A DNA stretch of 64,000 bases from Terriglobales bacterium (lineage in GTDB: Bacteria; Acidobacteriota; Terriglobia; Terriglobales; SCQP01): contig JBOGKJ010000285.1 in assembly GCA_050745565.1 (NCBI GenBank), forward strand, positions 2,149 to 66,148, read 5' to 3'. The notes beneath the pieces are model-generated. The model was given only the letters and a program-made list of their open reading frames with translations, was not told the DNA's origin and searched no databases. A program made the position numbers and the translations under genes. Below, in pieces: positions 33,805 through 54,279 of the stretch (the first letter of the stretch is position 1; every line of letters starts with the position of its first letter).

Positions 33805-33818
33805 CCGGATCCTTGCGG

Positions 33819-35549: not shown

Positions 35550-35671
35550 GGCGCACGGCAGGGCTGCTCGCCCGCAGTGGAACTCTCTGCTCAGATGTTA
35601 AGCGCCCGGGCCGGGGCGGGTCAAGCAATATTCGGCGCCGGGAGTTGACAGGCGTGCCGGGCACCACGGCA

Positions 35672-35955: not shown

Positions 35956-36031
35956 AGTAAATAGGAACTGAACTGGGGTGCGCGGCCGCGCGTACAACCA
36001 CTACGGGTTAAACTGAGAAGAACTGCGCCAC

Positions 36032-37426: not shown

Positions 37427-37431
37427 CGCCC

Positions 37432-38226
37432 ATGCCCATTCCCTCTGCCGTCCCTGCCACCGACCCTGGCCCGCTCGCGTCCGGCGTCCACTCCGGCACG
37501 CTGGTTTCACCCTCGCCCGACGCCATCATCCAGACCGTTGATTTGTGGAAGATCTATCAAATGGGCACCGAACAGGTGGCCGCGCTGCGCGGAGTCTCGA
37601 TCGAGATCAAGCGCAACGAGTACGTGGCGATCATGGGGCCTTCGGGTTCGGGCAAGAGCACGCTCATGAACCTGATCGGCTGCCTCGACTCACCCACGCG
37701 CGGCCAGTACTGGCTGAACCACCAACTGGTGTCGGAGCTCGATGACGATGAGCTGGCGCACATCCGCAACCACGAGATCGGGTTCGTGTTCCAGACCTTC
37801 AACCTGCTAGCGCGCGCCACGGCGCTGCACAACGTCGAGCTGCCGCTGATCTACGCCGGCATTGCCGCCGGCGACCGTGCGGCCATGGCGGCCGAGGCGC
37901 TCAAGAAAGTAGACCTGCTCGACCGCCAGCACCACCGCCCCAACGAGCTCAGCGGCGGCCAGCGCCAGCGCGTCGCGATAGCGCGGGCGCTGATCAACAA
38001 CCCCAGCATCCTGCTGGCCGACGAACCCACCGGCAACCTGGATTCGGTGACCAGCAACGAAATCATGGGGCTGATGGACCGGCTCTGGGAGCTGGGCAAC
38101 ACCATCGTGCTGGTGACGCACGAGCCCGATATTTCCGAGTACGCGCACCGCGTCATCCACATCCGTGATGGCAAGGTGGCGCGCGATGAATCTACCCGGC
38201 GCGGGCGCGAGAACACCCGCGCCTGA
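37432..38226 (+). CDS. ABC transporter ATP-binding protein (MacB/LolD type)
   Basis: Walker [10 protein letters not shown], signature [15 protein letters not shown], Walker [13 protein letters not shown]. Confidence 0.92.
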
Positions 38227-38253
38227 CCGCCGGCCCTGGCCGCGGCGCTCGCC

Positions 38254-39489
<1,236 letters not shown>

Positions 39490-39490
39490 C

Positions 39491-40988: not shown

Positions 40989-43334
40989 TCACGCCAGCGG
41001 AGCCGCACCGGGGTCGGCGCCAGCATTGACGTAAAGCGAACACACGCAGCGACGGCAAATCGGGTTACTGCCCACATCGAGCGTGCGGCGGAAGCTCAAC
41101 GCCTCCGGGCTGTTGAGAATCGTGAGCAACGGCTGCTGGCGGATATTGCCAAGCGGCGCGTGAAAAAAGCAGGGGCGGACCTGGCCGTCGGACTCGACCA
41201 CGGCCGACACCCAGGGCGCATTGCAGCGAGGAGCGACCGCCGGCGCCAGGCCCAGTTGGGATTCGAAGTGCCGCACCAGACGGTCCAACTTGGCGGGCCC
41301 CTCGACGATGTAGCCGGAGGCGATTTCTGGCGCGCACTCCCGGACCAGGGCGTCCATCTCGGCCCGCAGCCCGCGAGTGTGCTCGGCGGTAAGACCGAGT
41401 GCCTCGTGGGCGGAGGCCGACCACCCTCCGGGCCGCGCGTCGTGTTGAAAAGCTTCCGGCGAAAGGTCGGCCGCGAGGAACGAAATCGAGCTGAGTCCGA
41501 GTTCCAGGGCGGAACGGACGGTGGCGCGAAGGCAGCCGAAGTTGGCTTGCGAAATGGTGCAGCGACCGGCAATTGTCATCCCCGGGCGTAGATCCCGCAG
41601 CGCCTTGATACCGCGTGCCAAGTGGGCGTAAGCCCCGGAGACATTCCGCACCTGATCATGGGCCGCAGGCGGACCATCCAGCGAAACAATCACGTCATCC
41701 ACGTTGTCGGCCACCAGACACGCCCGTGGCGCCAGCAGCAAACCCGAACTGAGCAACGTTAGCCGCACCCGCTCGCCCCGTAGTATCCGGGCGAGGGCCG
41801 GCAGGTCGGAGTGCATCAGCGCCTCCCCGCCGGACAACACGACCCATCGCACCGCCAGCGAGCGTAGCGAGTTCCGCAGGCCATCGAGATCGGAAGTATT
41901 GAGCTCGCGGGTCTGGCGGATGCGCCAGATGTCGCACATTAGGCAGCGGCAGTTGCAACGGTTGTGCGGAAGCAGCACCAGGATTGGTAGTTGCCGGATG
42001 TAGTGGGGGTCGGACGGGTCGCCCTCCGCGCCAACGGCGCCGGCGGCGGCGGGCAGCGCCCGAGGGCGCGAGGGAGCAGACCCCAGCAGCTTGCCGCCGA
42101 GCCGGAGTTCAGAGCCCAAACACTGCCGGGCGGCGGCGAGCAAATGGCGCACCGGCGCCCGCACCAGACGTTCATGCCCGCCGGCCACGAGCGGCTCCAG
42201 GCCGTGAAGTAGATTTCGCGCGGATCCACTCCAGCGCTCGCCCAGTTCTGGGGCCAGCAGCTGCACGCGGCCGTCCTTTAGCACCAGCGCCACATCGTGG
42301 TGGCGTGCCCCCACCAACAGCTCGGCGGGCGTACTCCGCTCCATTCCGCCCGCGCAGCGTACCGCGATCAAGTCCGCGGCGCCACCGCGCGCTATCCGCC
42401 CGATACCACCCGTCAGGCCCAGGACCGAGCCGGCGCGCCGGGTGACCATGTCGTAGAGCAGGGCTCGGGGATGCAATCCATCGCCGAAGACCTGCGCGGC
42501 GTCGGACATCTCGTCCAGGAGATCGCCGGCGGCGGTCAGTGCCGAGTCGCTTCCGAGGATAGCCTTGGGGTTGTCGCGGATCAGATCGGGCGCGACCGTC
42601 GTCCCCAGCATGAACAAGTTCGAACTCGGACACCAGACCAGAGTGGCCCGCCGCTCGCGCAGAAGGCGGTGACCGTCCGCATCCAGGCCGACACAGTGAA
42701 CGGCCACGGTTCTCGCATCGAGGACCCCGAGTTTGTCAAGCTTCCCGGCTTCCTGGCGGCTGGCCTCGTCGGTGCCTTCCGCCAGATGCAGGATGAAGGG
42801 CGCATCGGAGGGCGCGCGCCTCCACGCGGCGGCGGCATCACCGCCCAGCGCAAGTGAGTGGATCCAACCATAGCGGCGCAGAACCCGAACCGGAAAGTCC
42901 GCATCCAGGCATGCGGCGTAGCAGGGGTTGTGATGGCAGACGGTGGTGACGCCGCACAACAGGTTCTTCAGGCCGCCCCACCAGCAACGCACCTCCTTGG
43001 AAAGCCTGGAATGCTCCTGAACCGGAGAACGGTCGGGCTGGTAGATATCGGCGGCCCAGGCCAGAAAATTGGGGTAAGGTCCGCGGCCGAGACGCGGGAA
43101 CAGATTGAACTCGAGATGCTCATGGGCATTGATCAGGCCGGGCAGGATCATGTAGCCGGACAGATCGAGGTGCTGGGCGCGGCGCGCATAGGCGAGCGGC
43201 ACGGCCTCACCGGCGTCGGGGATTTGGCGGATGGTCGAGCCGGCGATGAGTATCCGGGCCGGAATGCTGGTGGCGGCGTCGAGCGCGATCCGCGCCCCGG
43301 AGATGAGAATCGGGGCGGATGCGGGTGCGCTCAT
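40989..43334 (-). CDS. fusion protein: N-terminal metal-dependent amidohydrolase domain + C-terminal radical SAM domain with SPASM/twitch-like Cys-rich tail
   Basis: One uninterrupted ORF. LPGLINAHEHLEF (HxH), then PHNRCNCRCLMCDIW (CX3CX2C), then CNAPW...RPCFFH...NPICRRCVCSL. Start set at ATG 43334 (ATGA overlap with the upstream stop); the ORF-track start is 43361. Confidence 0.8.
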   Translation of the reverse strand: MSAPASAPILISGARIALDAATSIPARILIAGSTIRQIPDAGEAVPLAYARRAQHLDLSGYMILPGLINAHEHLEFNLFPRLGRGPYPNFLAWAADIYQPDRSPVQEHSRLSKEVRCWWGGLKNLLCGVTTVCHHNPCYAACLDADFPVRVLRRYGWIHSLALGGDAAAAWRRAPSDAPFILHLAEGTDEASRQEAGKLDKLGVLDARTVAVHCVGLDADGHRLLRERRATLVWCPSSNLFMLGTTVAPDLIRDNPKAILGSDSALTAAGDLLDEMSDAAQVFGDGLHPRALLYDMVTRRAGSVLGLTGGIGRIARGGAADLIAVRCAGGMERSTPAELLVGARHHDVALVLKDGRVQLLAPELGERWSGSARNLLHGLEPLVAGGHERLVRAPVRHLLAAARQCLGSELRLGGKLLGSAPSRPRALPAAAGAVGAEGDPSDPHYIRQLPILVLLPHNRCNCRCLMCDIWRIRQTRELNTSDLDGLRNSLRSLAVRWVVLSGGEALMHSDLPALARILRGERVRLTLLSSGLLLAPRACLVADNVDDVIVSLDGPPAAHDQVRNVSGAYAHLARGIKALRDLRPGMTIAGRCTISQANFGCLRATVRSALELGLSSISFLAADLSPEAFQHDARPGGWSASAHEALGLTAEHTRGLRAEMDALVRECAPEIASGYIVEGPAKLDRLVRHFESQLGLAPAVAPRCNAPWVSAVVESDGQVRPCFFHAPLGNIRQQPLLTILNSPEALSFRRTLDVGSNPICRRCVCSLYVNAGADPGAAPLA

Positions 43335-44035
43335 GGTTGGACGGGCGGCGATACCCGCCACACGAAGGTGAGCAGTGCCGGCACCGCGCCTGCGGCGTCA
43401 AAGAGGTCCGGGCGGCCAGCGGCGGCGAAGATGGGTCGCTCCGGCTCGCCCAACCGCGCCTGCTGGCAGCTCAGCAATTGGCAGCCGGCCGCCGTGAATG
43501 CCGCCTCCAGCCGGCGCGGAGGTTGCGGGTAATGCGGAACCTCAGTCCAGTGCCCGTCCGGGGAGGTGAAGCCACGCCGCCAGCCGGCTTCAGGATGGAC
43601 GTCGGCGATCAGGATGTAGGCGCCGGGGCGCGACTGACGGCTCAACTCCCGCGCCAGCGCCGGGACATCAGGCAGATACGCGAGGGCCAAGCAACAAAGG
43701 ATGCACTCGGCCCAATGCGCCGCCAGAGGCAGGCGGAGCACGTCGGCGCGCACCAACCGGGCGCGACCCGCCAAGCGCGAACGAGCACGGGCGAGCATCG
43801 CGGCGGAACGGTCCACCCCGACCGCAGTGCCGGCCCCCAGCGCCATCATCCGTTCCAGCCCTCGCCCGGTACCGCAAGCGACGTCGAGTACAGCCCGGCC
43901 CCGCAGATCGGGCAGCAGCGGCGTCAGCGTGCGCTCCGCCAGCGCTAACAACGGATTGGGTTGCTGGTCGTAGACCTCCGCCCAGGCGTCGTGGGGGCAG
44001 GGTTTTCGGACCATGTACCCCGGCACTGCACTCAT
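43331..44035 (-). CDS. class I SAM-dependent methyltransferase
   Basis: 234 aa, motif I VLDVACGTGRG. ATGA overlaps at both ends. Confidence 0.85.
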   Translation of the reverse strand: MSAVPGYMVRKPCPHDAWAEVYDQQPNPLLALAERTLTPLLPDLRGRAVLDVACGTGRGLERMMALGAGTAVGVDRSAAMLARARSRLAGRARLVRADVLRLPLAAHWAECILCCLALAYLPDVPALARELSRQSRPGAYILIADVHPEAGWRRGFTSPDGHWTEVPHYPQPPRRLEAAFTAAGCQLLSCQQARLGEPERPIFAAAGRPDLFDAAGAVPALLTFVWRVSPPVQP

Positions 44036-45522
44036 AGGCTCTCGCTCTCAGGCTGCCGCTGACGCAGCAATCTCTGCAGCCATCGCAGTTCCACCGGCCA
44101 GGCGTAGATGCGGCAGAGATAGCGCCAGGCGCTCAGGCCCCGCAACAGCCAGCGCCCCCACCGCGGCATGCGGATGTCCTGAATGGTGGGCCAGTGGCTG
44201 GCCACCACGAGCCGGAAATTATCAATCGTTCGCCGCGTACGCGCCGCCAGCCAGGGACTGTGCGGGCTGCGGCGAATGGTGAAGTTGAACCACCGTTCGG
44301 TGGCCCACTCCTCGGGGGTGTTGGGAAACTGAATCTGCGCTTCGACGTCACCGTACATGCGGTCGCGCTGCGGTACCGGCGTGTAGTGATAGAGAATGAT
44401 CTCCGAGGCGGGGTGAATGCGTTTCAACCGGCGGATGAACGCCAGGCATTCCCGCGTGTCACGGTCCGGATCCTTGGGATTGCCGACCACGAAGGAAAAT
44501 TCCGGGATGATGCCAAAGCCACGAATGCGGGCCGCCAATTCCAGCGTCTGCTCCACCCGCAGGTGCTTGTTCATGTCCTGCAAGACCCAGTTGGAGCCCG
44601 ATTCGGCGCCAAAGAAGATCATGGTGGCGCCGGAACGGCGCAACGCCGCAAAGGTGGCGTCGGAAAACCGCAGCATGGCGTCGATGCGGGCCTCGCACCA
44701 CCAGCGCAGATGCAGCGGCGTCAACCGCTCCGCCAGCTCGCGCGCGGTGTCTTCGCGCAGAAAAAAATTGTTGTCGTAGAACTGCACCGCGTCGGCGCCG
44801 TAGTGCGAGCTCAGATGTTGGAGCACGGCGGCGGTGCGAACGGGCGCCTCCATTTTCTCGCGGCTGCCGAAGGCGGTGGCGACACCACAAAAGCTGCACG
44901 GATAGGGACAGCCGAGGCTGGCCTGGTGGACGGCGGTGCGCCGGCCCAGAAACGACGGTAGCAGATAGCGGTCCACCGGCAGACGGTGATAAGGGAGCCA
45001 GGGGAAAGTGCCCGGGTTCTTCATGACCCGCTCAGGATTGTGGTGATGCGCGCCCGCGGCATCCCTATACGAGAGGCCCCGGATTTCCGCACGGCCGGCG
45101 CGGTCCGGCAGGGCGGCGAGCAGCTCCAAAAAGGTGTCCTCGCCCTGGCCGCGTACCACGTAATCGACGTAGGGCGCATTGAGCGCGGCGTCGGGATACA
45201 AGGTGGGAAAATATCCGCCCCAGACGATGGTCACTCCCGGAAACGCGGCCCGCAATGGCCGGCAACAGCTGATGGCCGCGCGCATCTGCGGCCCCGGCAT
45301 GACCGTGGCAGCCAGCACCGCTTGCGGGTGCTGTTTCAAGATCGCGCTGATGCTAGCCACAGGATCGGGGTCGAGGTTGCCGTCGACGATCGTATACGGC
45401 CACCGGCCCTCCAGCACGGCGGCGATGGTCAGGACCGACAGCGGAAAGCGGCGGCTGCGGGGCCGGGTGGCTCGGGGGTTGAAGAGAATAATCATGCCAT
45501 GGGCATTAAAGGCGGTATCCAA
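44032..45522 (-). CDS. B12-binding-domain radical SAM protein (subfamily X)
   Basis: 496 aa. N-terminal Rossmann-like B12-type domain, SLGCPYPCSFC cluster motif, C-terminal YAWPVELRW. The start may be 45495. Confidence 0.85.
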   Translation of the reverse strand: MDTAFNAHGMIILFNPRATRPRSRRFPLSVLTIAAVLEGRWPYTIVDGNLDPDPVASISAILKQHPQAVLAATVMPGPQMRAAISCCRPLRAAFPGVTIVWGGYFPTLYPDAALNAPYVDYVVRGQGEDTFLELLAALPDRAGRAEIRGLSYRDAAGAHHHNPERVMKNPGTFPWLPYHRLPVDRYLLPSFLGRRTAVHQASLGCPYPCSFCGVATAFGSREKMEAPVRTAAVLQHLSSHYGADAVQFYDNNFFLREDTARELAERLTPLHLRWWCEARIDAMLRFSDATFAALRRSGATMIFFGAESGSNWVLQDMNKHLRVEQTLELAARIRGFGIIPEFSFVVGNPKDPDRDTRECLAFIRRLKRIHPASEIILYHYTPVPQRDRMYGDVEAQIQFPNTPEEWATERWFNFTIRRSPHSPWLAARTRRTIDNFRLVVASHWPTIQDIRMPRWGRWLLRGLSAWRYLCRIYAWPVELRWLQRLLRQRQPESESL

Positions 45523-46471
45523 GCCACAGGTAGAAACGCGAGGGCTCGCGGCGCCGCAACAACCTCGCCTTCCAGGGCCGCAGGCGCCAGGCCAGGCCGT
45601 AATCGGGCAGGTGGCGCTCCCAGCGCAAACCCAGGGCCGCGGCTAGCGATTCCATCGTTTCCTGCACCAGGTACTCGCGGCTGCGCAGCGCGTCCGAGCG
45701 CTGCCCAAACTGACGCTGAAAGCGCTGGTGTTTTTCCTCAACCATGCGATCGCCGCTGACCGCCTGCGCGTAGAAGGGCGAATCCAGAATCGCCACCGCG
45801 CCGTCCACCCGCAGACACCGCAGCGCTTCGGCGAGCGTGGACCGGTAATCCTCCGAGTAATGGAACACGGCATTGTAAATCGCCAAGTCGAATTGCGCCT
45901 CGCAGAACGGCAAGTGATCCATGTCCGCCTGATATCGGGAAAAGCGGACGTCTTCGGCCAGATAGTGGCGCGCCGCGCCGAGGCCGTCGTCGGGATGGTC
46001 GAGCAGATCCACCGCGACTGGGCGGTGGCCCATGGCGGTGAGGCGATGGCTCAACCAACCGTTGCCGGCTCCGAGGTCGAGGATGTCGAGGCCGCCGCCC
46101 CGGGCGGCGGCGAGGCGCGGGACGAGGTTGGTCGCCAAGTGGCGGTAACTACAGCCCCGGATGGCCCACTCCCAGGCGTGGCGGCCGGTGCGGTCACTGT
46201 AGGGGAGATCAAGATAATAGGCGGGGTCGGGTGAGCCCCGCCCCTCCTGCGATCGGATGGTGGTGTAGCTCGTCGCGAAGGCGGCGAAGTGCCGGGCCCG
46301 GTCGGCGGCCAAAGCGCGCCAGATGCCGTCACGCAGACCCACCTCGAAACCGCAATGCGGACACAGGATGGCGGAGTCGCCCGCCGGCGGCAGCCCACGG
46401 GCGCAGGCCGGGCAGCGCAGACGCAAGCCGAAAGCGGCGGCGGTGGGCGCCATGGCGGCCGGAGTGCTCAT
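45506..46471 (-). CDS. SAM-dependent methyltransferase with N-terminal zinc-ribbon
   Basis: 321 aa from ATG 46471: CPAC...CPHC ribbon, then ILDLGAGNGWLS motif I. The ORF-track entry (438 aa) is over-extended. Confidence 0.8.
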   Translation of the reverse strand: MSTPAAMAPTAAAFGLRLRCPACARGLPPAGDSAILCPHCGFEVGLRDGIWRALAADRARHFAAFATSYTTIRSQEGRGSPDPAYYLDLPYSDRTGRHAWEWAIRGCSYRHLATNLVPRLAAARGGGLDILDLGAGNGWLSHRLTAMGHRPVAVDLLDHPDDGLGAARHYLAEDVRFSRYQADMDHLPFCEAQFDLAIYNAVFHYSEDYRSTLAEALRCLRVDGAVAILDSPFYAQAVSGDRMVEEKHQRFQRQFGQRSDALRSREYLVQETMESLAAALGLRWERHLPDYGLAWRLRPWKARLLRRREPSRFYLWLGYRL

Positions 46472-47271
46472 GTTCGTTGCAACTCGATCAGCAGGTGATC
46501 CGCCAAGGAGCGGTATCCCCACCAAGCGCCAAAGTGTCGGTCCAATCGCTCCATCCGGGTCAGCAGGCGGGGATGCCGTCGAGCCCAGGGTTCCCAGCGG
46601 GATGAAGGCACCGCAACGCCTACGCCGCGCCACCGCAGCAAACGAAAATGGGGGGCGAAGCGGCGCGCCAGGGCGGGAGCGCAGTAATAGCGCACCCGAA
46701 TTGGCGCACCGGCAATGCGGGCCTCGACGACGCCGTGCCGCAGCCGCCGCAGCCCTTTGCCGAGCTGGCCTTGGGCGAGCAGGCCGGCCATCTCCCAGCC
46801 CCCCCATCGGCCCGACACGCACAACAGCGCCGGCGCGGCCGGCCGCAACAACCGCGCCAGTTGTTCCGCCGCCGCCCGAAGGTCCTCCACACAGTTCAAT
46901 CCCGAGAAATTGGAAAACACTCCATCAAACCGCTCGGCTGGTTGCAGTTCCTGGAGAGCTTCGATCGCCAGCACGTGGACCTCTGCCGAGCCCGCGGCCG
47001 GGACGCGGCGCATGCGCCAGCGCGCCTGTTCCACCATGCGGGCGGATTGATCGCAGGCCCAGACGCTCACACCCCTTCCGGCCAGCCGCGCCGCGTCCAC
47101 GCCTGTGCCGCAGTTGATTTCCAGCACGTGCTGGCCGGGTTGAAACACGCGATCCATGACCCGCCACACCAGGCGGCGCTGGGCGCCGCCGATGCGGGAA
47201 TCGGTGAACACCCGGTCGTACTCGCCGGCGAGGCCGTCAAAGGGCGCCGAGGCAACTGCGGCGGCGTCCAT
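46468..47271 (-). CDS. class I SAM-dependent methyltransferase
   Basis: 267 aa, motif I VLEINCGTGVDA. Confidence 0.85.
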   Translation of the reverse strand: MDAAAVASAPFDGLAGEYDRVFTDSRIGGAQRRLVWRVMDRVFQPGQHVLEINCGTGVDAARLAGRGVSVWACDQSARMVEQARWRMRRVPAAGSAEVHVLAIEALQELQPAERFDGVFSNFSGLNCVEDLRAAAEQLARLLRPAAPALLCVSGRWGGWEMAGLLAQGQLGKGLRRLRHGVVEARIAGAPIRVRYYCAPALARRFAPHFRLLRWRGVGVAVPSSRWEPWARRHPRLLTRMERLDRHFGAWWGYRSLADHLLIELQRT

Positions 47272-48695
47272 TACGCCTCCACCTCAGCGGCGGCTCCCAG
47301 CAGGCCCGAGCGGGCGCTCTGGACCGCGGTTCGAAACGCGTTCAGGTCCGGCTCTGCCGCGCCGGCGCGCTGGCGGCGGTGCAGCTGCACCTCGGCTTCG
47401 AGAAGCTGGTCGGCGTAGCTGTAAAAGCGGCGGGAGTGCCGGCCACGGATGTGCAGCTCGCGATCGGAAGTCTCCGTCCACGGCGCCGAAGCCGTCAGCG
47501 AGTTCTCCAACTCGGCGAAGTACGGCGTCCCTTTGATGGGGTAGGAGACGGTCGTCAGAAAAATATCCGGGTCGGCGCGTTTGACATGGGCCACGGTCGC
47601 CTCGATATCGGCCATCTCCTCGTCCGCATAGCCCCACATCAGGAACATGCCGACCTGAATGCCACGCGCCCGCGCCATGTCCGCCGCCGCCTGCACCTGT
47701 TCCACCTTGACGTCGCGCTGCATGGCGTCGAGCAGCCGCTGCGAGCCGCTCTCCGATCCGATCCAGAGCCGGAAGCAGCCCAACTCCGCCAGCCGGTCGA
47801 GCACGGCGGGGTTGAGCCGGTCGGCGCGCGAAATGCACTCGAATGGAATGTGCAGTCGCCGTTCCCGCATTGCCGCCGCATAGCGTTCAAGCCAGGCGTG
47901 ATGTATCGTGAAGACGTCATCGGCGATCCAGAGCATGTCGGGGGCGTAGCGGCCCAGCACCCACTCGAGCTCTTCCACGACACGGTCGGGGTCGCGCCGG
48001 CGGTGGGTGCGGCCGTAGACGGCGTGGCTGCACCAGCGGCAGCGGTAGGGGCAGCCGCGCGCCGTGATGAGAGCCACGGAGCCGGTGCCGTGGTGCTGGC
48101 GCCAAGCCGCCAGATAGCGTTCGACCGGCACGCGTTCGCGATCCGGCCAGGGCTGGGCATCCAGATCGGCGATCAGCGGCCGGGGCGCAGTCTGGCACAC
48201 TCGGCCGTCGGCCTGCAAAAACGCAAGCCCTCGAATCCCCTCGCAGCCCGTCAGATCCAACCCCCTGCCGCTGTCGCGCGCGCACCGCTGCCGCTCGCGC
48301 AGCACCGGCACCAACTCCTCCAGCGTCAGTTCGCCCTCCCCATACACCACCACGTCAGCGCCCGCCGCCAGGTATTCCGCGGCATACGCGCCCGGCTCCG
48401 GACCGCCGGCCACCGTGACCCAGCCGCTGCGCTTCGCCGCCTGCAGAATTCGCACCGCGTTGCGCCGGGTCATCAGATTGGCGTAAATGCCGAGCACCGC
48501 CGGAGGGCCGGCCTCCAGCACCGACTCGAGCTCGTCGAATGTGCTGAAGGTGCTGTCGAACACCTCCACGGCCATCCCCTGCCGCCGCAGATGAGACGAC
48601 AAATAGAGGATGCCGAGCGGCACGTAGGGCTTCATGATGCGCTGCTCTTTGGCATCGTCGGCGAGGAAGTAACCGTGGGTCAGCAGCAGATCCAT
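47271..48695 (-). CDS. B12-binding-domain radical SAM protein (subfamily Y)
   Basis: 474 aa from ATG 48695: MDLLLTHGYFLADDAKEQRIMKPYVPLGILYL..., ARGCPYRCRWC. Confidence 0.85.
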   Translation of the reverse strand: MDLLLTHGYFLADDAKEQRIMKPYVPLGILYLSSHLRRQGMAVEVFDSTFSTFDELESVLEAGPPAVLGIYANLMTRRNAVRILQAAKRSGWVTVAGGPEPGAYAAEYLAAGADVVVYGEGELTLEELVPVLRERQRCARDSGRGLDLTGCEGIRGLAFLQADGRVCQTAPRPLIADLDAQPWPDRERVPVERYLAAWRQHHGTGSVALITARGCPYRCRWCSHAVYGRTHRRRDPDRVVEELEWVLGRYAPDMLWIADDVFTIHHAWLERYAAAMRERRLHIPFECISRADRLNPAVLDRLAELGCFRLWIGSESGSQRLLDAMQRDVKVEQVQAAADMARARGIQVGMFLMWGYADEEMADIEATVAHVKRADPDIFLTTVSYPIKGTPYFAELENSLTASAPWTETSDRELHIRGRHSRRFYSYADQLLEAEVQLHRRQRAGAAEPDLNAFRTAVQSARSGLLGAAAEVEA

Positions 48696-48697
48696 GG

Positions 48698-50137
48698 CTA
48701 ACCCGCTGCCGTTCGCGCCAGGGTGGTGGGTTGTGGGTGGCGGCTCGCCGGCTCCAGGGCCTCGACCCGCTGCCACAGCATCCCCACCCGCGCAGCCCCC
48801 GCCGCGGTAGCGTCGCGGTGGTACAGGCTCACTTCGGCGTGCAGGGCGTCCCGCAGCGCGCGGTAGAACTCGCTGGTGTAGGTGGCCTGAAACATGACCT
48901 CAAGGTCGTCACTATCGCTCCAGTTCCGCTTCGCCCCCAACTGCCCTCGCACTTGCCGGTGGAAGCCGGTGCCGGGCAGGGGGTAGGAGACTGAGACGCC
49001 GATGTCGTCCGGCCGCGCCGTGCGCACCAAGGCAATCGTCGCAGCGATTTCGGCCCAGCCCTCGCCAGGGTAGCCAAACTGCAAAAAGAACCCAGCGCGA
49101 ATATTCTGCGCGGCGAGTGCTGCCCGTGCCTCCAGCACTTGGCGGACGCGCAGGCCTTTGTCCATGCGGTCGAGCACCTCTTGCGCGCCCGATTCCGCAC
49201 CGAGCCAGACCTCGCGGCAACCGGCGCGTCGCAGGGCGGCACTGGCGGCGGCGGAGATCAGATTGGCGCGCGTTTGAATCTTGAACGGGGTCACCGCCTG
49301 CAGCCCCTGGACGGCCTGGGCCAGCTCCTCCGCCCACCCCGGCCGGAGGGCAAACACGTCATCCGCGAACCACAACTGGTCGGCGCCCCAGCGCGTGCGC
49401 AGCTCGTGCATCTCGCCTGCCACGGCCGCCGCAGAGCGGCCGTGCCAGGCGTTGCCATAGATGGGCTTCGCGCACCAATTGCAGCCATAGGGGCAGCCGC
49501 GGCTCGCCACCAGGTTGAGCGAAAAGTAGCCGTGGTGGGCCCGCCAGGCGCGCCGGTAGGGCTCAATATCCACCAGGTCACGGGCGGGTAGCGGCAGCGC
49601 GTCCAGTGCCGCAATCGCGCTCCGGGGCGGGGTTCGCGCCACGCGCCCGTCCGCCGTCAGCCATGCCAAACCGGCGATCGAGGTGACTTGCTGGGGATTT
49701 TGGGCCAAGGCCCGGGCGAGCTCGAGCAACGTCTGTTCCGGCTCACCCATCACCACCCAGTCGAATCCGGCATGCAGGTACTCCTCCACATGGTCGCTGG
49801 CATCCGAGCTGTTGCCCACGACCACCACGCCTGCGTCGTGCGCCATCTCCGCCATCGTCCACGCCAATTGCCGGTTTGCGGTCAGGCACATCTTGGACAG
49901 AAAATTAAAATTGTCCTCGCAAATCGCCAGCACTCGGGGCCGGTGGCGAGCAAGCGCGGAGCGCAAGCCGGGCAACGGCGGCTCGAAGGTGCTATCGAAG
50001 AACGCCACCGAGTGCCCGGCCGCGCGCAGTAGCGCGGCCGCGTACAGCCCGCTCAGCGGCGGGTAGGGCTGCATCTTCCGCGCCTGCTTCGTGTCCGACG
50101 GAACGTGATTGGCGTGGGTGAAGAGTATGTCAGTCAT
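48698..50137 (-). CDS. B12-binding-domain radical SAM protein (subfamily Y)
   Basis: 479 aa: MTDILFTHANHVPSDTKQARKMQPYPPLSGLY..., SRGCPYGCNWC. Confidence 0.85.
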   Translation of the reverse strand: MTDILFTHANHVPSDTKQARKMQPYPPLSGLYAAALLRAAGHSVAFFDSTFEPPLPGLRSALARHRPRVLAICEDNFNFLSKMCLTANRQLAWTMAEMAHDAGVVVVGNSSDASDHVEEYLHAGFDWVVMGEPEQTLLELARALAQNPQQVTSIAGLAWLTADGRVARTPPRSAIAALDALPLPARDLVDIEPYRRAWRAHHGYFSLNLVASRGCPYGCNWCAKPIYGNAWHGRSAAAVAGEMHELRTRWGADQLWFADDVFALRPGWAEELAQAVQGLQAVTPFKIQTRANLISAAASAALRRAGCREVWLGAESGAQEVLDRMDKGLRVRQVLEARAALAAQNIRAGFFLQFGYPGEGWAEIAATIALVRTARPDDIGVSVSYPLPGTGFHRQVRGQLGAKRNWSDSDDLEVMFQATYTSEFYRALRDALHAEVSLYHRDATAAGAARVGMLWQRVEALEPASRHPQPTTLARTAAG

Positions 50138-50170
50138 CGGTCTGCTCCCGGCGCCGCCGCCTGCCGCGGT

Positions 50171-51670
50171 TCAGCACGCCTCCTCCATGGAGTGACTCAA
50201 GCTCTGACCGGTCAGCAGGGAGCGGCGCGAGACCACGCCTTCGGTGGCCCGGGCCAACCACAGCTCCCACGGAAAACCAAAGCGGTTCACCCGCAGGCGC
50301 CAGCGCAAGGGCGCGCCCAGCACTCGGCGCCGGGCTCGGAACCACCGCGAACGCTGCGCGGCGCGCCGGATCTGGTTGTTCAACAGAAAGTACTCGAGCA
50401 TGCGGCGCAGCCGGCGGCGCTCTTCACCCTGCAGCCAGGGCAGTATGTTCCGCCCCAGCGGCAGGTCCGCCCACGCTTCCAAGTTCCCCGGCTCGTGCAC
50501 CCCCAGCGTCCGCAACTGCGGCCAGATCGGGATGCCGGGATAGGGGGTGAAAATGTTGGGGGAAAAGCTCACGACCCCATACCGGCGCGCGATGTCGCTC
50601 ATCACTCGGAAGGTGTGCAGGCGGTCGGCTTCGGTTTCGCCGGGGTAGCCTAGAATCAAATTGAAGGTCACCCGGATGCCGGCCTGGTCGGCCTTGCGCG
50701 CGGTCTCGAACATCTCCTCCACGCGCTGATGCTTCTTGTTCATGGCCAGCAGCACGCCTTCCGAAGCAGATTCGGTCCCGAACCCCATATGGCTGACGCC
50801 ACTGGCCGCGAGGCGGCCCACGTCGGCGTCACTGAGACGGCATAGCAGGTCCGTCGAGGCCTGAAAGGTCCAGCGGAAGCGCTCGCCGGAGGCGATAAAG
50901 CCCTCGGCGATCTCGATCGCGCGCTTGCCGTCCACGAGAAAATTGGAGTCCAGCAGCGCCACTTCCTCCAGTCCATGCCGCCGCACCAACTCGACCACCT
51001 CGCCCACCACGCGTCCGGCCTTGTACGCGTTGAAGCGCCGCTGGTAAAACACCATGTCGGTGCAGTAATTGCAGGCGTAGGGGCAGCCAATACTACTGGC
51101 GTATCCCGCCTTGCGTACGCCGCTCAGGCGGGCGTAGGCATCGAAGTCGGCCAGGTGGTAGGCGGGAGGCGTCAGTCGGTTGATGTTTTCCAGCGGCCGA
51201 TCGGGGTTGTGGACGTGCGCGCCGTTGCGCTTGAAGCTCACCCCGGCAACTTCCTCCATGCCGCGGCCCGCGGCAAGGCGCTCGGCAATCTCCAGCAGCG
51301 TGCGCTCCCCCTGCCGCCGCACCACCATGTCCACGTAGTCCGGTTCGAGCGACTGATCCGGAAGCAGACTGGGATGCCAGCCGCCCAGGATGATGGGCAG
51401 CTCCGGCCGCATCTGTTTCACGCGTCGGGCCAGGCGCGCGCCGTGCTGAATCATCGGACCGGTAAGCATGGAAATACCCAGGCAGAGCGCATCCGGAATC
51501 GCCCGCATCACCACGGCTTCGAAATCGGGCGTGACGGCGGCATCAACCAGACGCACCGGGAAACCGGCTTCCAACAGCGGCGCAGCCAGGCACAGAAGAC
51601 TGAGCGGCGCGCTGAGCGCCGGCCCCGAGTATGGCGGATAGAACAGGACGATCGTGCGTGGCGCGCTCAT
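50171..51670 (-). CDS. B12-binding-domain radical SAM protein (subfamily X)
   Basis: 499 aa from ATG 51670 (MSAPRTIVLFYPPYSG...), SIGCPYACNYC, C-terminal FGFPWELW. Confidence 0.85.
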   Translation of the reverse strand: MSAPRTIVLFYPPYSGPALSAPLSLLCLAAPLLEAGFPVRLVDAAVTPDFEAVVMRAIPDALCLGISMLTGPMIQHGARLARRVKQMRPELPIILGGWHPSLLPDQSLEPDYVDMVVRRQGERTLLEIAERLAAGRGMEEVAGVSFKRNGAHVHNPDRPLENINRLTPPAYHLADFDAYARLSGVRKAGYASSIGCPYACNYCTDMVFYQRRFNAYKAGRVVGEVVELVRRHGLEEVALLDSNFLVDGKRAIEIAEGFIASGERFRWTFQASTDLLCRLSDADVGRLAASGVSHMGFGTESASEGVLLAMNKKHQRVEEMFETARKADQAGIRVTFNLILGYPGETEADRLHTFRVMSDIARRYGVVSFSPNIFTPYPGIPIWPQLRTLGVHEPGNLEAWADLPLGRNILPWLQGEERRRLRRMLEYFLLNNQIRRAAQRSRWFRARRRVLGAPLRWRLRVNRFGFPWELWLARATEGVVSRRSLLTGQSLSHSMEEAC

Positions 51671-53226
51671 GGGCAGCTCGCCTGCGTCTGCAACTGCTTG
51701 GCGTCCACCGAGGGCTTGGCGGGGGGCAGAATGTGCTTCAGCTTGCGGTTGATCCACAGCTCCACCGGCAGGGCGTAGATATCGTGATCGAGCCGCCAGC
51801 GCGCCGGATAGCTGGTGGCGTGCTGCAGTTTGCGGCGCCAGACCTTGCGCCGGTCAGCGGCGATGGGAATGCGGTCAAAGGCGATGCGGAGATAATCGCG
51901 CATCGTCTGCAGCCGCTGATGTTCCCGTCCGCGCAGCCACGGCAGCACGGTGTAGCGGGGGAAGAAATCCGCCCAGCCCGCCAGCGTCGCCGGCAGCTCC
52001 AGGCCCAGTTCCTGGGCCTTGTGCAGGACCGGCGCGCCGGGGTAGGGCGTAAAGATGTTCGTCCAAAACTCCGCGCCGGAGTGGCGGCGGCACATGTCCA
52101 TCATGAAACGAACGGTTTCGCGGCGCTCGGCCCGGCCCTCGCCGGGAAATCCAAAAATGATGTTGAACGAGGGGCGAATACCGGCTTGCAAGCAGCGGGA
52201 CGCGGTCTGGTCAATGTCGTCGAAGTTTTGGAACGTCTTGTTCATCAGCGCCAGCACTTTGGGAGACGCCGAGTCCACGCCATGGCAGATCTGGGACAAG
52301 CCGGCTCGGCGCAACAGGCGCAAATTATCGGGCGTCAGGCGGGCGGTCAGATTGCTGGTCGCCTGGATGCTCCAGTCGAAACGGGCACCGCCGCGCACCA
52401 GGTCTTCGGCGATGTGCAGGGCGCGCTCCAGATCCACCAGAAAGTTGTCGTCCACCACCCAGAGCAGCTGCAGGCGGTAGCGGCGGGTCAGCTCCAGCAT
52501 CTCGGCCGCCGTCTGGTCAGCGGGCAGCGCATTCCATTGGCGTCCGTAGACGGCGGCATTGGTGCAGTAGGCGCAGTGGAAGGGGCATCCCAGGCTCGAC
52601 GTGTACATCGCCCAACGTTTGCCGCACAGCCGTTCATAGGCGTCGAAGTCGGCGATCTGGTAGGCCTTGGGCGGCAATTCGGCCAGGCGTAGCAGCCCCC
52701 GTGGCGGATTGAGCACAAGCTCGCCGCCGCGTTTAAAGCCGACGCCGGCGATGCCGTCCAACGTTTCGCCGGCGGCCAGACGTTGCACGACCGCCAGCAT
52801 GGCCTGCTCACCCTGGCCCTGCACCACGGCATCAATGCAAGCCGTTTCGAGAGTTTGGCGGGGAAGCAGCGAGGGGTGCCAGCCGCCCACAATGATCGGA
52901 AACGCCGGATTCCAGGCTTTGACGGCGCGGGCGACCTGAAGCGTCTCCCGGATCATGGGCCCGGTGACCAGCGACACGGCGAGGCAGAGGGCGTCCTGCA
53001 CCTCCGCCAGCACCCGTTTTTCGAACTGCGGGGTGATGGTGGAATCAATAAGCTGGACTTGGAAGCCGGCACTCAGCAGCGGGGCGGCCACCGCCAGAAT
53101 GCCGAGCGGCGCCGTGGCCTCCTGGCTGGAAAAGGCCGGGAAGAAGAAGACGACCTTGCGGGATGGACGCTGGTGACTCAATGCAGATTGAGCATAAACG
53201 GAGGGCCCAGTGAAGATGTCAAGCAC
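51667..53226 (-). CDS. B12-binding-domain radical SAM protein (subfamily X)
   Basis: 519 aa, SLGCPFHCAYC, C-terminal YALPVELW. Clear paralogue of 50171-51670. Confidence 0.85.
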   Translation of the reverse strand: MLDIFTGPSVYAQSALSHQRPSRKVVFFFPAFSSQEATAPLGILAVAAPLLSAGFQVQLIDSTITPQFEKRVLAEVQDALCLAVSLVTGPMIRETLQVARAVKAWNPAFPIIVGGWHPSLLPRQTLETACIDAVVQGQGEQAMLAVVQRLAAGETLDGIAGVGFKRGGELVLNPPRGLLRLAELPPKAYQIADFDAYERLCGKRWAMYTSSLGCPFHCAYCTNAAVYGRQWNALPADQTAAEMLELTRRYRLQLLWVVDDNFLVDLERALHIAEDLVRGGARFDWSIQATSNLTARLTPDNLRLLRRAGLSQICHGVDSASPKVLALMNKTFQNFDDIDQTASRCLQAGIRPSFNIIFGFPGEGRAERRETVRFMMDMCRRHSGAEFWTNIFTPYPGAPVLHKAQELGLELPATLAGWADFFPRYTVLPWLRGREHQRLQTMRDYLRIAFDRIPIAADRRKVWRRKLQHATSYPARWRLDHDIYALPVELWINRKLKHILPPAKPSVDAKQLQTQASCP

Positions 53227-53251: not shown

Positions 53252-54277
53252 TCAACGCCCGTTTGCAGCCGCGAGGGCGGCGTCCAAAGCCGCTTGCACC
53301 CGGTGAGTGCAGGCCGCCCATGTCCAACTGGTCGCGCGTCGCAGGCCCCGTTCCCGCAACTCCAGCCGCAGCCCCCCGTTGTCCACCAGTTCGACCAGCC
53401 CGGCGCCGATGGCCTCAACTTCGCGAGGGTCTACGGCGAGGGCGGCTTCGCCGACCACTTCGGGCACGGCCGTGGTGTTGCTGGTGAGCACCGGCGCCCC
53501 GCACGCCATCGCCTCCAGCGCCACCAGGCCGAACCCTTCGTGCGTGGAGGGCACGGCAACGCCCAGGGCGCCGCGATAATACGCACCCAAATCCGACTCC
53601 GGAATCCGGCCCACAAAGCGAATCTGCGCGGCCACGCCCAGGCGGCGAGCGAGCGTCAACAAATCCGCCTCCGGGGCGCCATTAAACACGAGGTGAATGC
53701 CGCGGTGCGCCAGCCCGGCGGCGGCGTACGCCGCCACCAACCGGGCGCGATTCTTATGGGGGCGGGCGTTGCCCAGAGAGAGGATGTAGGGATAACCGGG
53801 CGAATGCTTGGGGCCCTTGGGGTGAAACTCCGGACCCGTTCCCAGACCGGTAACCACCACCTTCTCCGGCGAGATGCCGCTCCAGTCTACGATCTCCTGC
53901 CGCGAGAACTCCGAAGGCGTCAGCACAAACAGCGCCCGGCGGGCCGCCGGCAACACTATGTGGCGATAGTAGGCTCGCTTGCGCCGCCCAGTTTCATCGG
54001 CACAGTGCAGATGGATGAGGTCGGCGATGTTGAACACCAGTGGGGTCGCCCCTCCCCAGGGCGGATTGAAGCCGGGGGTGAAGTACAGGCGCGGGCGATG
54101 GCACCGCAACTGAGCACGCAGCCAGAGTGGCTCCAAGGGATGCAGGCAGGGCGGTCCGCCGGTCAGCGCCGTCGCATCCCTGAGCGCGCGCGTGACTTCC
54201 CGCGCGAACCGCCCCAGTCCATGATCGCCGTCCCAGCGGCCATCGTAGAGCAGCGCCGGCCTGGGACGGGGCGCCAC
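53252..54277 (-). CDS. family 4 (GT-B) glycosyltransferase
   Basis: 341 aa from GTG 54277, 2 nt after the upstream stop. STHEGFGLVALEAMACGAPVLTS (EX7E). The ORF-track 491-aa entry is over-extended. Confidence 0.85.
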   Translation of the reverse strand: MAPRPRPALLYDGRWDGDHGLGRFAREVTRALRDATALTGGPPCLHPLEPLWLRAQLRCHRPRLYFTPGFNPPWGGATPLVFNIADLIHLHCADETGRRKRAYYRHIVLPAARRALFVLTPSEFSRQEIVDWSGISPEKVVVTGLGTGPEFHPKGPKHSPGYPYILSLGNARPHKNRARLVAAYAAAGLAHRGIHLVFNGAPEADLLTLARRLGVAAQIRFVGRIPESDLGAYYRGALGVAVPSTHEGFGLVALEAMACGAPVLTSNTTAVPEVVGEAALAVDPREVEAIGAGLVELVDNGGLRLELRERGLRRATSWTWAACTHRVQAALDAALAAANGR

Positions 54278-54279
54278 GG

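Follow-up and report, generated by a model that had tools for sequence, protein, structure and literature searches.

What does a bacterium make with five cobalamin-type radical SAM enzymes encoded in one run, and on which molecule would they act? The question arises from the window, a 64,000-nucleotide stretch of a Terriglobales genome, in which an earlier note had described five such paralogues interleaved with three SAM methyltransferases. Both counts hold: the five radical SAM genes lie on the minus strand, each with PF02310 (B12-binding) and PF04055 (Radical_SAM) matches above the Pfam gathering score, and all three methyltransferases are co-operonic and carry class I methyltransferase Pfam domains. 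The unit is also bigger than had been described, with an amidohydrolase and a sixth (SPASM) radical SAM enzyme at 40989–43334. The whole operon-like cassette occupies 40989–53226 of the minus strand (about 12.3 kb), its genes abut or overlap, and ten functions are encoded. Five are class B radical SAM enzymes and three are class I SAM methyltransferases; the other two are a deaminase-type amidohydrolase (AH) and a SPASM-type radical SAM enzyme.

51667–53226, minus strand: X3, class B (B12-domain) radical SAM enzyme (PF02310, 66.1 bits; PF04055, 74.9 bits)
50171–51670, minus strand: X2, class B radical SAM enzyme, nearest paralogue X3 (PF02310 and PF04055)
48698–50137, minus strand: Y2, class B-type radical SAM enzyme, Y subfamily (PF04055, 54 bits; PF02310, marginal at 35.1 bits against a gathering cut-off of 32.1)
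47271–48695, minus strand: Y1, class B-type radical SAM enzyme, Y subfamily (PF02310 and PF04055)
46468–47271, minus strand: MT3, class I SAM methyltransferase (Methyltransf_25/12/11)
45506–46471, minus strand: MT2, class I SAM methyltransferase (Methyltransf_11/25)
44032–45522, minus strand: X1, class B radical SAM enzyme, the most divergent X (PF02310 and PF04055)
43331–44035, minus strand: MT1, class I SAM methyltransferase (Methyltransf_11/25)
40989–43334, minus strand: fusion of a deaminase-type amidohydrolase with a radical SAM/SPASM enzyme, which closes the cassette (Amidohydro_1, Radical_SAM, SPASM)

Gene starts were compared with the public calls for the identical contig (L001) and with NCBI cluster members, and the differences are slight: X3 is called at 51667–53181 (504 aa) in the public and NCBI records against the earlier start at 53226, X1 at 44032–45495 (487 aa), MT1 at 43331–44014 and MT2 as 321 aa in L001. 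The NCBI records include the exact Y2 protein, from a Terriglobales MAG.

The order X3-X2-Y2-Y1-MT3-MT2-X1-MT1-AH-rSAM/SPASM is kept in full in most of 80 Acidobacteriota loci from other genomes, so the five-gene pattern is not due to chance. The earlier note had not recognised this wide conservation across Terriglobia. Carriers that share the synteny include cultured Edaphobacter, Granulicella, Tunturiibacter, KBS 83 and KBS 89, and the distribution covers Acidobacteriaceae and Bryobacterales (subdivisions 1 and 3). Orthologues of X3 were found in 80 loci (median identity 66%), those of Y2 in 68 of the 80 (53%), of X1 in 67 (60%) and of X2 in 62 (median 61%); X2, Y2 or MT2 is absent from 12–23 of the 80. 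Since orthologues of the radical SAM genes are 53–66% identical and paralogues 23–44%, the duplications are old and every copy has been retained. The proposed division into two subfamilies is real, though finer than stated: X3 and X2 share 44% identity, X1 shares 28–31% with X2 and X3 (28% with X3), Y1 and Y2 share 37%, and X and Y about 23%. The five thus fall into three old lineages, X2/X3, X1 and Y1/Y2. Alignment bore out the sequence motifs described earlier: G-C-P-[YF]-x-C-x-[FYW]-C in all five paralogues, a C-terminal motif common to the three X proteins (YAWPVELRW in X1, FGFPWELW in X2, YALPVELW in X3) and the N-terminal (L/F)THxxxxxxDxKxxxxMxPYxPL of Y1 and Y2. Gene fusions link parts of the cassette, joining MT1 to the amidohydrolase in most genomes and the amidohydrolase to the rSAM/SPASM enzyme in the window, and in remote relatives one uninterrupted ORF combines rSAM/SPASM with four B12-rSAM modules. 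The conserved operon and these fusions suggest that the five enzymes may act on one scaffold.

By profile and predicted model, all five share the architecture of class B (cobalamin-domain) radical SAM enzymes, and cobalamin binding is predicted. AF2 models of X3 (pLDDT 82.9) and Y1 (pLDDT 91.8) were searched with Foldseek; the best matches were TsrM, MgmA, AprD4, CysS, TokK and OxsB for X3 and MgmA, TsrM, OxsB, CysS, AprD4 and TokK for Y1 (E-values 1e-16 to 1e-21, TM-scores 0.6–0.7). These matches take in all the solved class B structures, and PDB profile matches returned the same set of proteins. The solved class B enzymes (TokK, CysS, TsrM, MgmA/QCMT, OxsB) and the cobalamin-free look-alike AprD4 have the same layout, with a Rossmann-like domain at the N-terminus, a TIM-barrel core carrying CxxxCxxC and a helical domain at the C-terminus. 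Identity to these structures is only 14–21%, however, and X and Y carry motifs of their own: a C-terminal W-R-x-x-x-x-x-(Y/F)-x-x-P-x-E-L-W in X and an N-terminal THxxxxxxDxK in Y. The best solved relative of Y1 by sequence is AprD4, an enzyme acting on sugars. Within the window, a search for a cobalamin riboswitch and for cobalamin synthesis or uptake genes found none.

The residue under the corrin bears on whether all five would methylate, as the earlier note had implied. In the alignment column of TsrM R69 and OxsB N186, the X trio has Val, Leu or Met and the Y pair a nearly invariant Asn (Asn73 in Y1). Beneath the corrin, X is thus predicted to have a hydrophobic residue, like radical methylases, whereas Y would have an OxsB-type Asn. 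A hydrophobic lower face has been linked to radical methylation, and class B also includes non-methylating enzymes; AprD4 and ArsL have the cobalamin domain with no cobalamin bound (PMC12931638). The methylase-like residue of X agrees with methylation; the OxsB-type Asn of Y means that a methylase role is not established for all five.

The paralogues cluster with no family of known function. Against every named NCBIfam family (BchE, HpnR, HpnJ, PhpK, ladderane, ApyD), all five score far below the cut-off. The best-scoring named families, the hopanoid enzymes HpnP/HpnR and HpnJ, BchE and the ladderane-type lipid B12-rSAM (TIGR04367, TIGR03471, TIGR02026, TIGR04072), belong to the same superfamily, yet the paralogues score 51–116 bits against their cut-offs of 360–650. 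Hopanoid methylation by HpnP/HpnR, cited earlier as an example, is disfavoured: cassette carriers such as KBS 83 lack both hpnP/hpnR and methylated hopanoids (PMC5462960). Could the cassette act on another membrane lipid instead? One or more of its enzymes might join, methylate or cyclise alkyl chains in the membrane-spanning lipids of Acidobacteria (iso-diabolic acid, branched GDGTs), as GrsA/B, Gmm and the SPASM enzyme Gms do in archaea; archaeal lipid tails are indeed modified by B12-rSAM and SPASM rSAM enzymes (PMC11214058). The groups in which the cassette occurs, subdivisions 1 and 3, make iso-diabolic acid, the very high conservation fits a core envelope lipid, and Acidobacteria lack Mss and mostly lack Tes, leaving their membrane-spanning lipid synthase still unknown (PMC13159169). 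We nevertheless consider a lipid substrate unlikely. No lipid gene adjoined the cassette in the flanks examined (limited-query homology searches and Pfam scans at a few loci), three class I methyltransferases and a deaminase would have no obvious job, and X2, Y2 or MT2 is dispensed with in part of the loci. Remote relatives are joined to glycosyltransferases, not to lipid enzymes, and the ladderane B12-rSAM model gives 55–109 bits against a cut-off of 360.

The amidohydrolase offers a different clue. From its sequence, we place it among the adenine-nucleoside and guanine deaminases: its metal or catalytic motifs HxH, HxxE, H and D are present, the N-terminal half of the fusion matches MTA and MTA/SAH deaminases in the PDB (4gbd, 1p1m, 4f0r), and the best NCBIfam match is 5'-deoxyadenosine deaminase, at 69 bits against a cut-off of 522. 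MTA/SAH and 5'-deoxyadenosine deaminases such as TM0936, PA3170 and DadD are thus its nearest named counterparts. It differs from them in that the C-terminal half alone aligns and that its fusion partner is a methyltransferase or radical SAM enzyme, a combination of which we found no description. The fusion to MT1 is seen in more than 100 proteins of about 650 aa and in 55 fused ORFs among the loci. Such a fusion might turn adenine into hypoxanthine by deamination and N-methylate the result, converting, for example, adenosylhopane to N-methylinosylhopane, while the rSAM enzymes add carbon methyls. Inosylhopane, N-methylinosylhopane and head-group-methylated adenosylhopanes are known from soils and cultures, and the passages searched of that report name no enzyme (PMC12583986); in Acidobacteria of subdivisions 1 and 3, hopanoids are made by way of hpnH (PMC5462960). 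An adenosine-containing product is nonetheless very improbable. The flanks examined showed no hpn gene, in scans that were not hpn-specific; the culture producers reported are Alphaproteobacteria (PMC12583986); carriers such as KBS 83 have no methylated hopanoids (PMC5462960); and six radical SAM enzymes far exceed what such chemistry needs.

The surroundings of the cassette point elsewhere. It ends an array of 17 same-strand genes, 63728–40989, in which no gap exceeds 70 bp; the rest of the array supplies the following context.

53252–61687, minus strand: Wzx/Wzy-type polysaccharide locus in the same array (Pfam and NCBIfam matches)
61684–63728, minus strand: a pair of P-loop proteins, HPr-kinase-like (ScmC-type), with which the array opens (Hpr_kinase_C, HprK_rel_A/B and ScmC matches, all below cut-offs)

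Directly upstream of X3 lie genes for two GT4 glycosyltransferases, a Wzy_C polymerase-like protein, a Wzx flippase, Wzz/GNVR and a single ORF combining NTP_transf_5 with a priming sugar transferase. This locus as such is not kept in other genomes. Among 66 long related loci, 35 carry genes for Wza/SLBB, Wzc, a sugar transferase, GT87 or GT4 in the flanks of the cassette, 24 have no glycan or HprK gene of the query set, and the flanking glycan genes vary from genome to genome; next to some copies lie transposases, a P450, or a GT1 with a PapA-like acyltransferase. The neighbourhood could stem from a common island of envelope genes, not from a common pathway.

At the head of the array, the HprK-type matches come from 62712–63728 only; the second ORF (61684–63144) has no family match and owes its HprK-like label to its P-loop sequence. 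Relatives adjoin the cassette in 32–33 of the 66 loci, and the neighbour in locus L084 is annotated as PF27840 ScmC. In computationally defined SynChlorMet (Scm) and HprK-related kinase systems, as here, a SPASM radical SAM enzyme occurs with an HPr-kinase-like P-loop protein. This raises the idea of RiPP maturation, with the B12-rSAM enzymes as C-methyltransferases (compare polytheonamide and bottromycin), the SPASM enzyme as cross-linker and the precursor encoded elsewhere. In its favour are the SPASM enzyme itself, the NTP_transf_5 and HprK-like neighbours in about half of the loci, the best NCBIfam match of the SPASM enzyme, to ScmE, the match of the HprK-like neighbour to ScmC of that predicted peptide-modification cassette, and the RiPP enzyme ApyD as top match of X2. 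All these scores fall far under the cut-offs, however (ScmE 64 against 400, ApyD 123 against 750). Across 66 loci, no conserved small ORF lies upstream of or beside the cassette, and its abutting and overlapping genes leave no room for a precursor inside. No conserved PqqD/RRE domain, protease or dedicated exporter accompanies it, and the SPASM enzyme, where it stands alone (a separate 343-aa gene in L084), begins directly at its CxxxCxxC motif. The Scm cassette is not known to have B12-rSAM enzymes or methyltransferases. A peptide substrate is unlikely.

Sugar-related settings recur in more distant proteins. Ten remote relatives of X (25–37% identity) were examined with their contigs, and six have a glycosyltransferase fusion or a sugar-locus setting: B12-rSAM-MT-GT2-MT-GT2-B12-rSAM in P0482; MT-GT1-B12-rSAM in P0415; GT4-rSAM/SPASM fusions with carbamoyltransferases and NDP-sugar epimerase/dehydratases in L086 and L090; Wzy_C and GT4 in L095; and Wzx, GT2, GT4, GT9 and a priming transferase in L096. 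As far from X as X is from Y (22–37% identity), the glycosyltransferase-fused proteins are best classed by sequence distance as analogues, not orthologues. In the cassette, the C-terminal (rSAM/SPASM) half of the fusion matches BlsE, which like AprD4 acts on sugars, and the weak PDB matches of MT2, which has a zinc-ribbon-like CPAC...CPHC motif at its N-terminus, include WbdD and a glucose O-methyltransferase. MT3 reached no NCBIfam family at cut-off and gave only generic PDB matches.

The Wzx/Wzy array, the polysaccharide flanks in about half of the loci and the six of ten remote relatives lead us to propose, with a probability of roughly 0.5, that the cassette decorates sugars of a cell-envelope glycan: a capsule, an exopolysaccharide, a lipid-linked repeat unit or a sugar precursor. 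The earlier note saw no way to read the substrate off the sequence; genomic context narrows the substrate class, most likely to carbohydrate. Against a glycan, the cassette itself has no glycosyltransferase or sugar-nucleotide enzyme, and polysaccharide tailoring is normally strain-variable, which makes 60–66% conservation unusual.

For glycan decoration, we propose the following mechanism. In the source genome, the cassette would act on what the Wzx/Wzy locus immediately upstream in the array produces. The X enzymes would use a 5'-deoxyadenosyl radical, derived from [4Fe-4S]/SAM, to take hydrogen from unactivated sugar carbons, to which the methyl group of methylcobalamin would then pass, as with GenK, GenD1 and MoeK5 on sugars. 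These are listed, along with Fom3, as class B methylases (PMC12931638), and the likeness lies in the chemistry proposed here: a methyl group would be added to an unactivated sp3 carbon of a carbohydrate-type substrate by enzymes encoded in a biosynthetic operon. They work singly or paired on small antibiotics in Actinobacteria, whereas here five paralogues adjoin Wzx/Wzy or Wza/Wzc polysaccharide genes in Acidobacteria. The Y enzymes, with their OxsB-like polar residue under the corrin, may perform another cobalamin-assisted radical step or a cobalamin-independent rearrangement, dehydration or cyclisation, and the SPASM enzyme may contribute a further, BlsE-like radical reaction on the sugar. 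Methylation of O or N atoms would fall to the three class I methyltransferases. The amidohydrolase would most plausibly clear S-adenosylhomocysteine and 5'-deoxyadenosine, inhibitory by-products of a SAM-hungry pathway; given its score far under the named deaminase cut-offs, it could act on the pathway substrate instead.

A literature search found no description of a six-radical-SAM cassette in Terriglobia. The cassette, with five cobalamin-type radical SAM genes at its core, is undescribed, and its gene order is kept across abundant soil Terriglobia. We read it as a self-contained tailoring module, Terriglobia-wide by gene order.

Nine close-packed genes on the minus strand, running from 53226 to 40989 and separated by intergenic gaps of -4 to 33 bp, make up a cassette in the order X3, X2, Y2, Y1, MT3, MT2, X1, MT1 and AH-rSAM/SPASM. 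The earlier note had called five B12-type radical SAM paralogues and three methyltransferases here, and Pfam domains bear this out in all eight genes: X1, X2, X3, Y1 and Y2 each combine PF02310 (B12-binding) with PF04055 (Radical_SAM), and MT1, MT2 and MT3 have class I methyltransferase domains. The ninth gene joins Amidohydro_1, Radical_SAM and SPASM domains. The cassette encodes six radical SAM enzymes. Each motif that had been quoted for the paralogues is seen in their alignment. Public gene calls shift the starts slightly, to 53181 for X3, 45495 for X1 and 44014 for MT1, with MT2 at 45506-46471. The cassette lies among the following features.

Features of the window discussed here
63820-63990, minus strand: OmpR/PhoB-type response regulator that runs off the window, represented by its C-terminal winged-helix end
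61684-63728, minus strand: two HPr-kinase-like (ScmC-type) P-loop proteins, with HprK_rel_A/B and ScmC-type matches all below cut-off
59663-61687, minus strand: one uninterrupted ORF carrying NTP_transf_5 (residues 40-291) and a priming Bac_transf sugar-phosphate transferase (residues 428-606)
40989-53226, minus strand: the cassette
45506-46471, minus strand: MT2, with an N-terminal four-cysteine, zinc-ribbon-like motif (CPAC...CPHC) ahead of the methyltransferase domain
36017-40750, plus strand: MacAB-type exporter (HlyD-like adaptor, ABC ATPase, two MacB/FtsX permeases), converging on the cassette end
33819-35597 and 32065-34050, minus strand: GWxTD-domain protein and CarboxypepD_reg-domain protein, downstream of a large PDZ/PAS histidine kinase

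The GWxTD and CarboxypepD_reg genes are typical Acidobacteria genes, unrelated to the cassette. G+C content is about 67% for the window (0.672 in the cassette versus 0.669 in the remainder), and no promoter- or terminator-like site inside the cassette rose above shuffled expectation. PDB searches with MT1-3 returned generic class I matches only.

The five paralogues have the hallmarks of class B radical SAM enzymes. PF04055 scores 40-75 bits in all five (cut-off 29.5), the CxxxCxxC cluster motif is invariant across their alignment, and AlphaFold2 (AF2) models of X3 and Y1 (pLDDT 82.9 and 91.8) confirm the radical SAM fold. The proposed N-terminal B12-type domain is recovered by PF02310 at 35-66 bits in each protein (cut-off 32.1) and by structure, the two models superposing on TsrM, TokK, CysS, MgmA and OxsB over both domains. 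In Foldseek, X3 and Y1 match TsrM, MgmA/QCMT (9CCB), AprD4, CysS, TokK and OxsB with E values of 1e-16 to 1e-21; every solved class B-type structure is matched, and other radical SAM enzymes trail at 1e-8 to 1e-12. The top PDB sequence match of Y1 is AprD4, which, like ArsL, has the Rossmann-like domain yet does not bind cobalamin (PMC12931638, a 2026 review). Domain architecture and models place the X and Y proteins in class B, with cobalamin binding predicted. None of the roughly 45 window ORFs scanned is a gene for cobalamin synthesis or uptake. At Rfam gathering thresholds, a cobalamin riboswitch is absent from the window, which yielded one tRNA only, and from six related loci, which yielded nothing.

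We used NCBIfam cut-offs as a proxy for kinship to characterized class B enzymes. None of the five proteins reached the cut-off for BchE, HpnJ, PhpK, ladderane-type, ApyD, RiPP C-methyltransferase, MgmA or BzaD families; the best named-family scores were 105-123 bits versus cut-offs of 282-750 (360-750 for BchE, ApyD, HpnJ and ladderane-type). Because no named cut-off was reached, the paralogues do not cluster tightly with a known family of unrelated function. A role as hopanoid methylase (HpnR/HpnP) was rejected on TIGR04367 scores of 51-86 bits against a cut-off of 650, and on the phenotype and genotype of carriers: strain KBS 83, like other strains of subdivision 1, has neither hpnP/hpnR nor methylated hopanoids (PMC5462960). 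The five proteins are new subfamilies within the known radical SAM superfamily.

The split into X and Y that had been read from the sequence stands, but it is finer than a division in two. X3 and X2 share 44% identity, X1 is 28-31% identical to X2 and X3, Y1 and Y2 share 37%, and X and Y about 23%, levels that indicate three old lineages. The two groups differ at the residue predicted to lie beneath the corrin, which is hydrophobic in radical methylases and polar in TsrM (R69) and OxsB (N186 plus water) (PMC12931638). In HMM/profile alignments, the TsrM R69/OxsB N186 column holds Val, Leu or Met in X1-X3 ("LGISLVTGP"), in contrast to a nearly invariant Asn in Y ("LGVYANLM"; compare OxsB "LSVNF"); this corrin-face residue was placed by alignment alone, as the AF2 models carry no cofactor. 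On this column, X looks methylase-like. Y, whose residue there resembles that of OxsB, could possibly perform chemistry other than methylation. For enzymology, the X/Y split offers two new class B subfamilies.

Homologues of X3 number in the hundreds at 66-72% identity, and those of Y1 likewise; nearly all the named ones come from Terriglobia/Acidobacteria. Scanning one genome per species gave 80 loci, including the cultured Edaphobacter modestus, E. aggregans, Granulicella, Tunturiibacter, KBS 83 and KBS 89 as well as Bryobacterales MAGs. The order X3-X2-Y2-Y1-MT3-MT2-X1-MT1-AH-rSAM/SPASM is kept in most of them, and thousands of metagenomic proteins represent the cassette.

Median identity of orthologues to the window proteins, with the number of loci among 80
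X3: 66%, 80/80 loci
X2: 61%, 62/80 loci
X1: 60%, 67/80 loci
Y1: 60%, 71/80 loci
Y2: 53%, 68/80 loci
MT3: 44%, 67/80 loci
MT2: 46%, 57/80 loci
AH-rSAM/SPASM: 45%, 69/80 loci

Across families, the radical SAM genes of the cassette keep 53-66% identity. Orthologues are far more alike than paralogues; therefore, the duplications took place before these orders radiated, and every copy has been kept. In three loci (L012 8901-9497, L033 6860-7993, L062 8120-9235) the cassette is directly preceded, on its upstream side, by transposase genes of the IS6/IS240, IS91 and IS110 types, which suggests that it is mobilized whole. MAGs assigned to Saccharimonadales, Chlamydiota, Acetobacteraceae and Verrucomicrobiae (L010, L059, L080; P0080) also have near-identical cassette genes, at 66-71% to the window. 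The G+C content of L080 is 58%, as in Terriglobia loci, and mis-binning seems a likelier source of these copies than transfer. We set aside two apparent amidohydrolase-rSAM fusions (P0130, P0132) and an apparent Y2-Y1 fusion (P0249), which look like frameshifted assemblies with low-complexity linkers. The 201-amino-acid ORFs that adjoin X3 in L020 and L033 show no conservation and are unlikely to be genes.

The amidohydrolase (AH) changes its fusion partner. In most genomes it is joined to MT1, in proteins of about 650 amino acids (more than 100 found; 55 ORFs among the surveyed loci), and the rSAM/SPASM enzyme is then a separate 343-amino-acid gene (L084). The window has the reverse arrangement, with MT1 standing alone and the amidohydrolase fused to rSAM/SPASM. 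PF13186 (SPASM) scores 48.6 bits (cut-off 21.5) at residues 713-772 of this fusion and is also annotated on the stand-alone L084 orthologue, which assigns the radical SAM part by sequence to the SPASM/twitch type. Its closest PDB protein is BlsE, a decarboxylase of a glucuronic acid moiety. The amidohydrolase retains the HxH, HxxE, H and D metal/catalytic motifs. Its best PDB matches are MTA and MTA/SAH deaminases (E 1e-10 to 1e-6), with 5'-deoxyadenosine deaminases also among the best matches, below family cut-offs; against NF005557 it scores 69 bits, far under the cut-off of 522. Class B methylation uses two SAM per round and yields SAH and 5'-dA, both inhibitory. Because each such methylation releases these compounds, the most economical reading of the amidohydrolase fusions is dedicated by-product removal. 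A SAH/5'-dA-type deaminase fused to a methyltransferase or radical SAM enzyme would be a new route to clear inhibitory by-products. The methyltransferase-deaminase fusion could instead suggest a substrate that contains adenosine, such as adenosylhopane: N-methylinosylhopane exists, and the searched passages of its report name no enzyme for it (PMC12583986). We regard this as very improbable, with hpn genes not seen in the flanks examined and no methylated hopanoids in cassette carriers (PMC5462960).

The cassette consists of tailoring enzymes only: a ligase, a carrier protein and a glycosyltransferase are absent, as are a conserved transporter and a precursor peptide. Its substrate must therefore come from outside. 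The SPASM enzyme, together with ScmC-like and NTP_transf_5 neighbours, suggests peptide maturation, and the cassette enzymes might then mature a RiPP. That is unlikely, given that no precursor, RRE domain or protease was found. Clustering of all ORFs of at least 35 amino acids upstream of X3 in 66 loci gave no conserved small ORF near the cassette, only out-of-frame X3 shadows and a 140-amino-acid protein resembling the ScmC N domain, and Pfam detected no PqqD domain in any cassette protein.

Three lines of context point to a carbohydrate substrate. First, a same-strand array of 17 genes (63728 to 40989, no gap above 70 bp) has the cassette at its 3' end and also includes the HPr-kinase-like and NTP_transf_5 genes, Wzz/GNVR, a Wzx flippase, a Wzy_C polymerase-like protein and two GT4 glycosyltransferases. 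Because one ORF carries both NTP_transf_5 and the priming transferase, this genome ties the poorly understood NTP_transf_5 family ('uncharacterised nucleotidyltransferase') to polysaccharide initiation. The OmpR/PhoB-type regulator lies upstream of the array, about 90 bp from its first gene, and may control it. Second, the flanks of 35 of 66 long related Terriglobia loci include Wza/SLBB, Wzc, sugar transferase, GT87 or GT4 genes, and HprK-like and/or NTP_transf_5 genes occur in 33 of the 66. The HPr-kinase-like proteins adjoin the cassette in about 32/66 loci, usually divergently (for example, L084 1-594), often followed by a 140-amino-acid protein like their N-terminal domain only.

Third, remote relatives keep company with sugar genes. 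An exhaustive search with X3 gave 1,897 clusters at E <1e-30, and we inspected the contigs of ten remote X relatives (25-37% identity), six of which are fused to, or embedded in, sugar genes. P0482 (L085 2649-8288, 1,879 amino acids) reads B12-rSAM-MT-GT2-MT-GT2-B12-rSAM in a single ORF. P0415 is an MT-GT1-B12-rSAM protein whose gene adjoins those for a UDP-sugar dehydrogenase, GT2 glycosyltransferases and a CmcI-type sugar O-methyltransferase. P0398 and P0491 (L086 10001-16996, L090 10001-16840; 2,279-2,331 amino acids) each unite one rSAM/SPASM and four B12-rSAM modules, a kind of giant protein for which we found no described system; their operons encode GT4-rSAM/SPASM and carbamoyltransferase-rSAM/SPASM fusions, carbamoyltransferases and NDP-sugar epimerase/dehydratases. 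P0390 neighbours a second B12-rSAM, an rSAM/SPASM, a methyltransferase, Wzy_C and GT4, and P0392 is placed between a Wzx flippase and a GT2/GT4/GT9 run plus priming transferase. These large ORFs are uninterrupted under the standard genetic code. Of the other four relatives, three are on short contigs or lack informative neighbours, and one is in an unrelated context. The GT-fused relatives are as distant from X as X is from Y; as analogues, they tell what such enzyme arrays do elsewhere, not what the cassette orthologues do.

The flanks themselves vary, with transposases in L012, L033 and L062, a cytochrome P450 gene beside the cassette region or within it in six loci (L006, L009, L022, L026, L070, L083), and a GT1 plus a PapA-like acyltransferase in E. 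aggregans. A small cupredoxin, one or two c-type cytochromes and a porin-like protein lie beside the cassette in 20-22 of 66 loci (L084 12965-15198).

None of the examined flanks showed a lipid gene, which argues against a cassette that modifies acidobacterial membrane lipids, an improbable alternative. We know of no identified biosynthetic genes for iso-diabolic acid or branched GDGTs in Acidobacteria. Branched GDGTs are the basis of palaeotemperature and pH proxies in wide use, and a lipid role would be the most consequential alternative if true. In its specific form, which we rate lower still, the cassette or part of it would be the missing machinery for membrane-spanning lipids, its class B enzymes joining two iso-fatty-acyl tails into iso-diabolic acid and/or adding the C5/C6 methyls and rings of brGDGTs. 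In favour of a lipid substrate, Acidobacteria of subdivisions 1 and 3 produce iso-diabolic acid but lack Mss and, mostly, Tes (PMC13159169), and B12-rSAM and SPASM rSAM enzymes modify archaeal lipid tails (PMC11214058). However, it leaves the methyltransferases and the deaminase unexplained, and some genomes do without X2, Y2 or MT2.

Our main explanation is that the cassette tailors sugars of a cell-envelope polysaccharide. Because the relatives are remote, the flanks variable and the conservation unusually high, exceeding what is usual in polysaccharide tailoring, we put its probability at about 0.5. Full-text literature searches found nothing on the cassette as a unit, on its amidohydrolase fusions or on its association with polysaccharide loci. 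The cassette is widespread, strongly conserved and chemically rich, and it is experimentally tractable through cultured strains. Action on envelope glycans would make it the first example of radical C-alkylation at multiple sites of a bacterial polysaccharide. Acidic soils and peat count Terriglobia among their most abundant bacteria, and a glycan-acting cassette would tie the capsule/EPS chemistry of these dominant soil bacteria to cobalamin supply.
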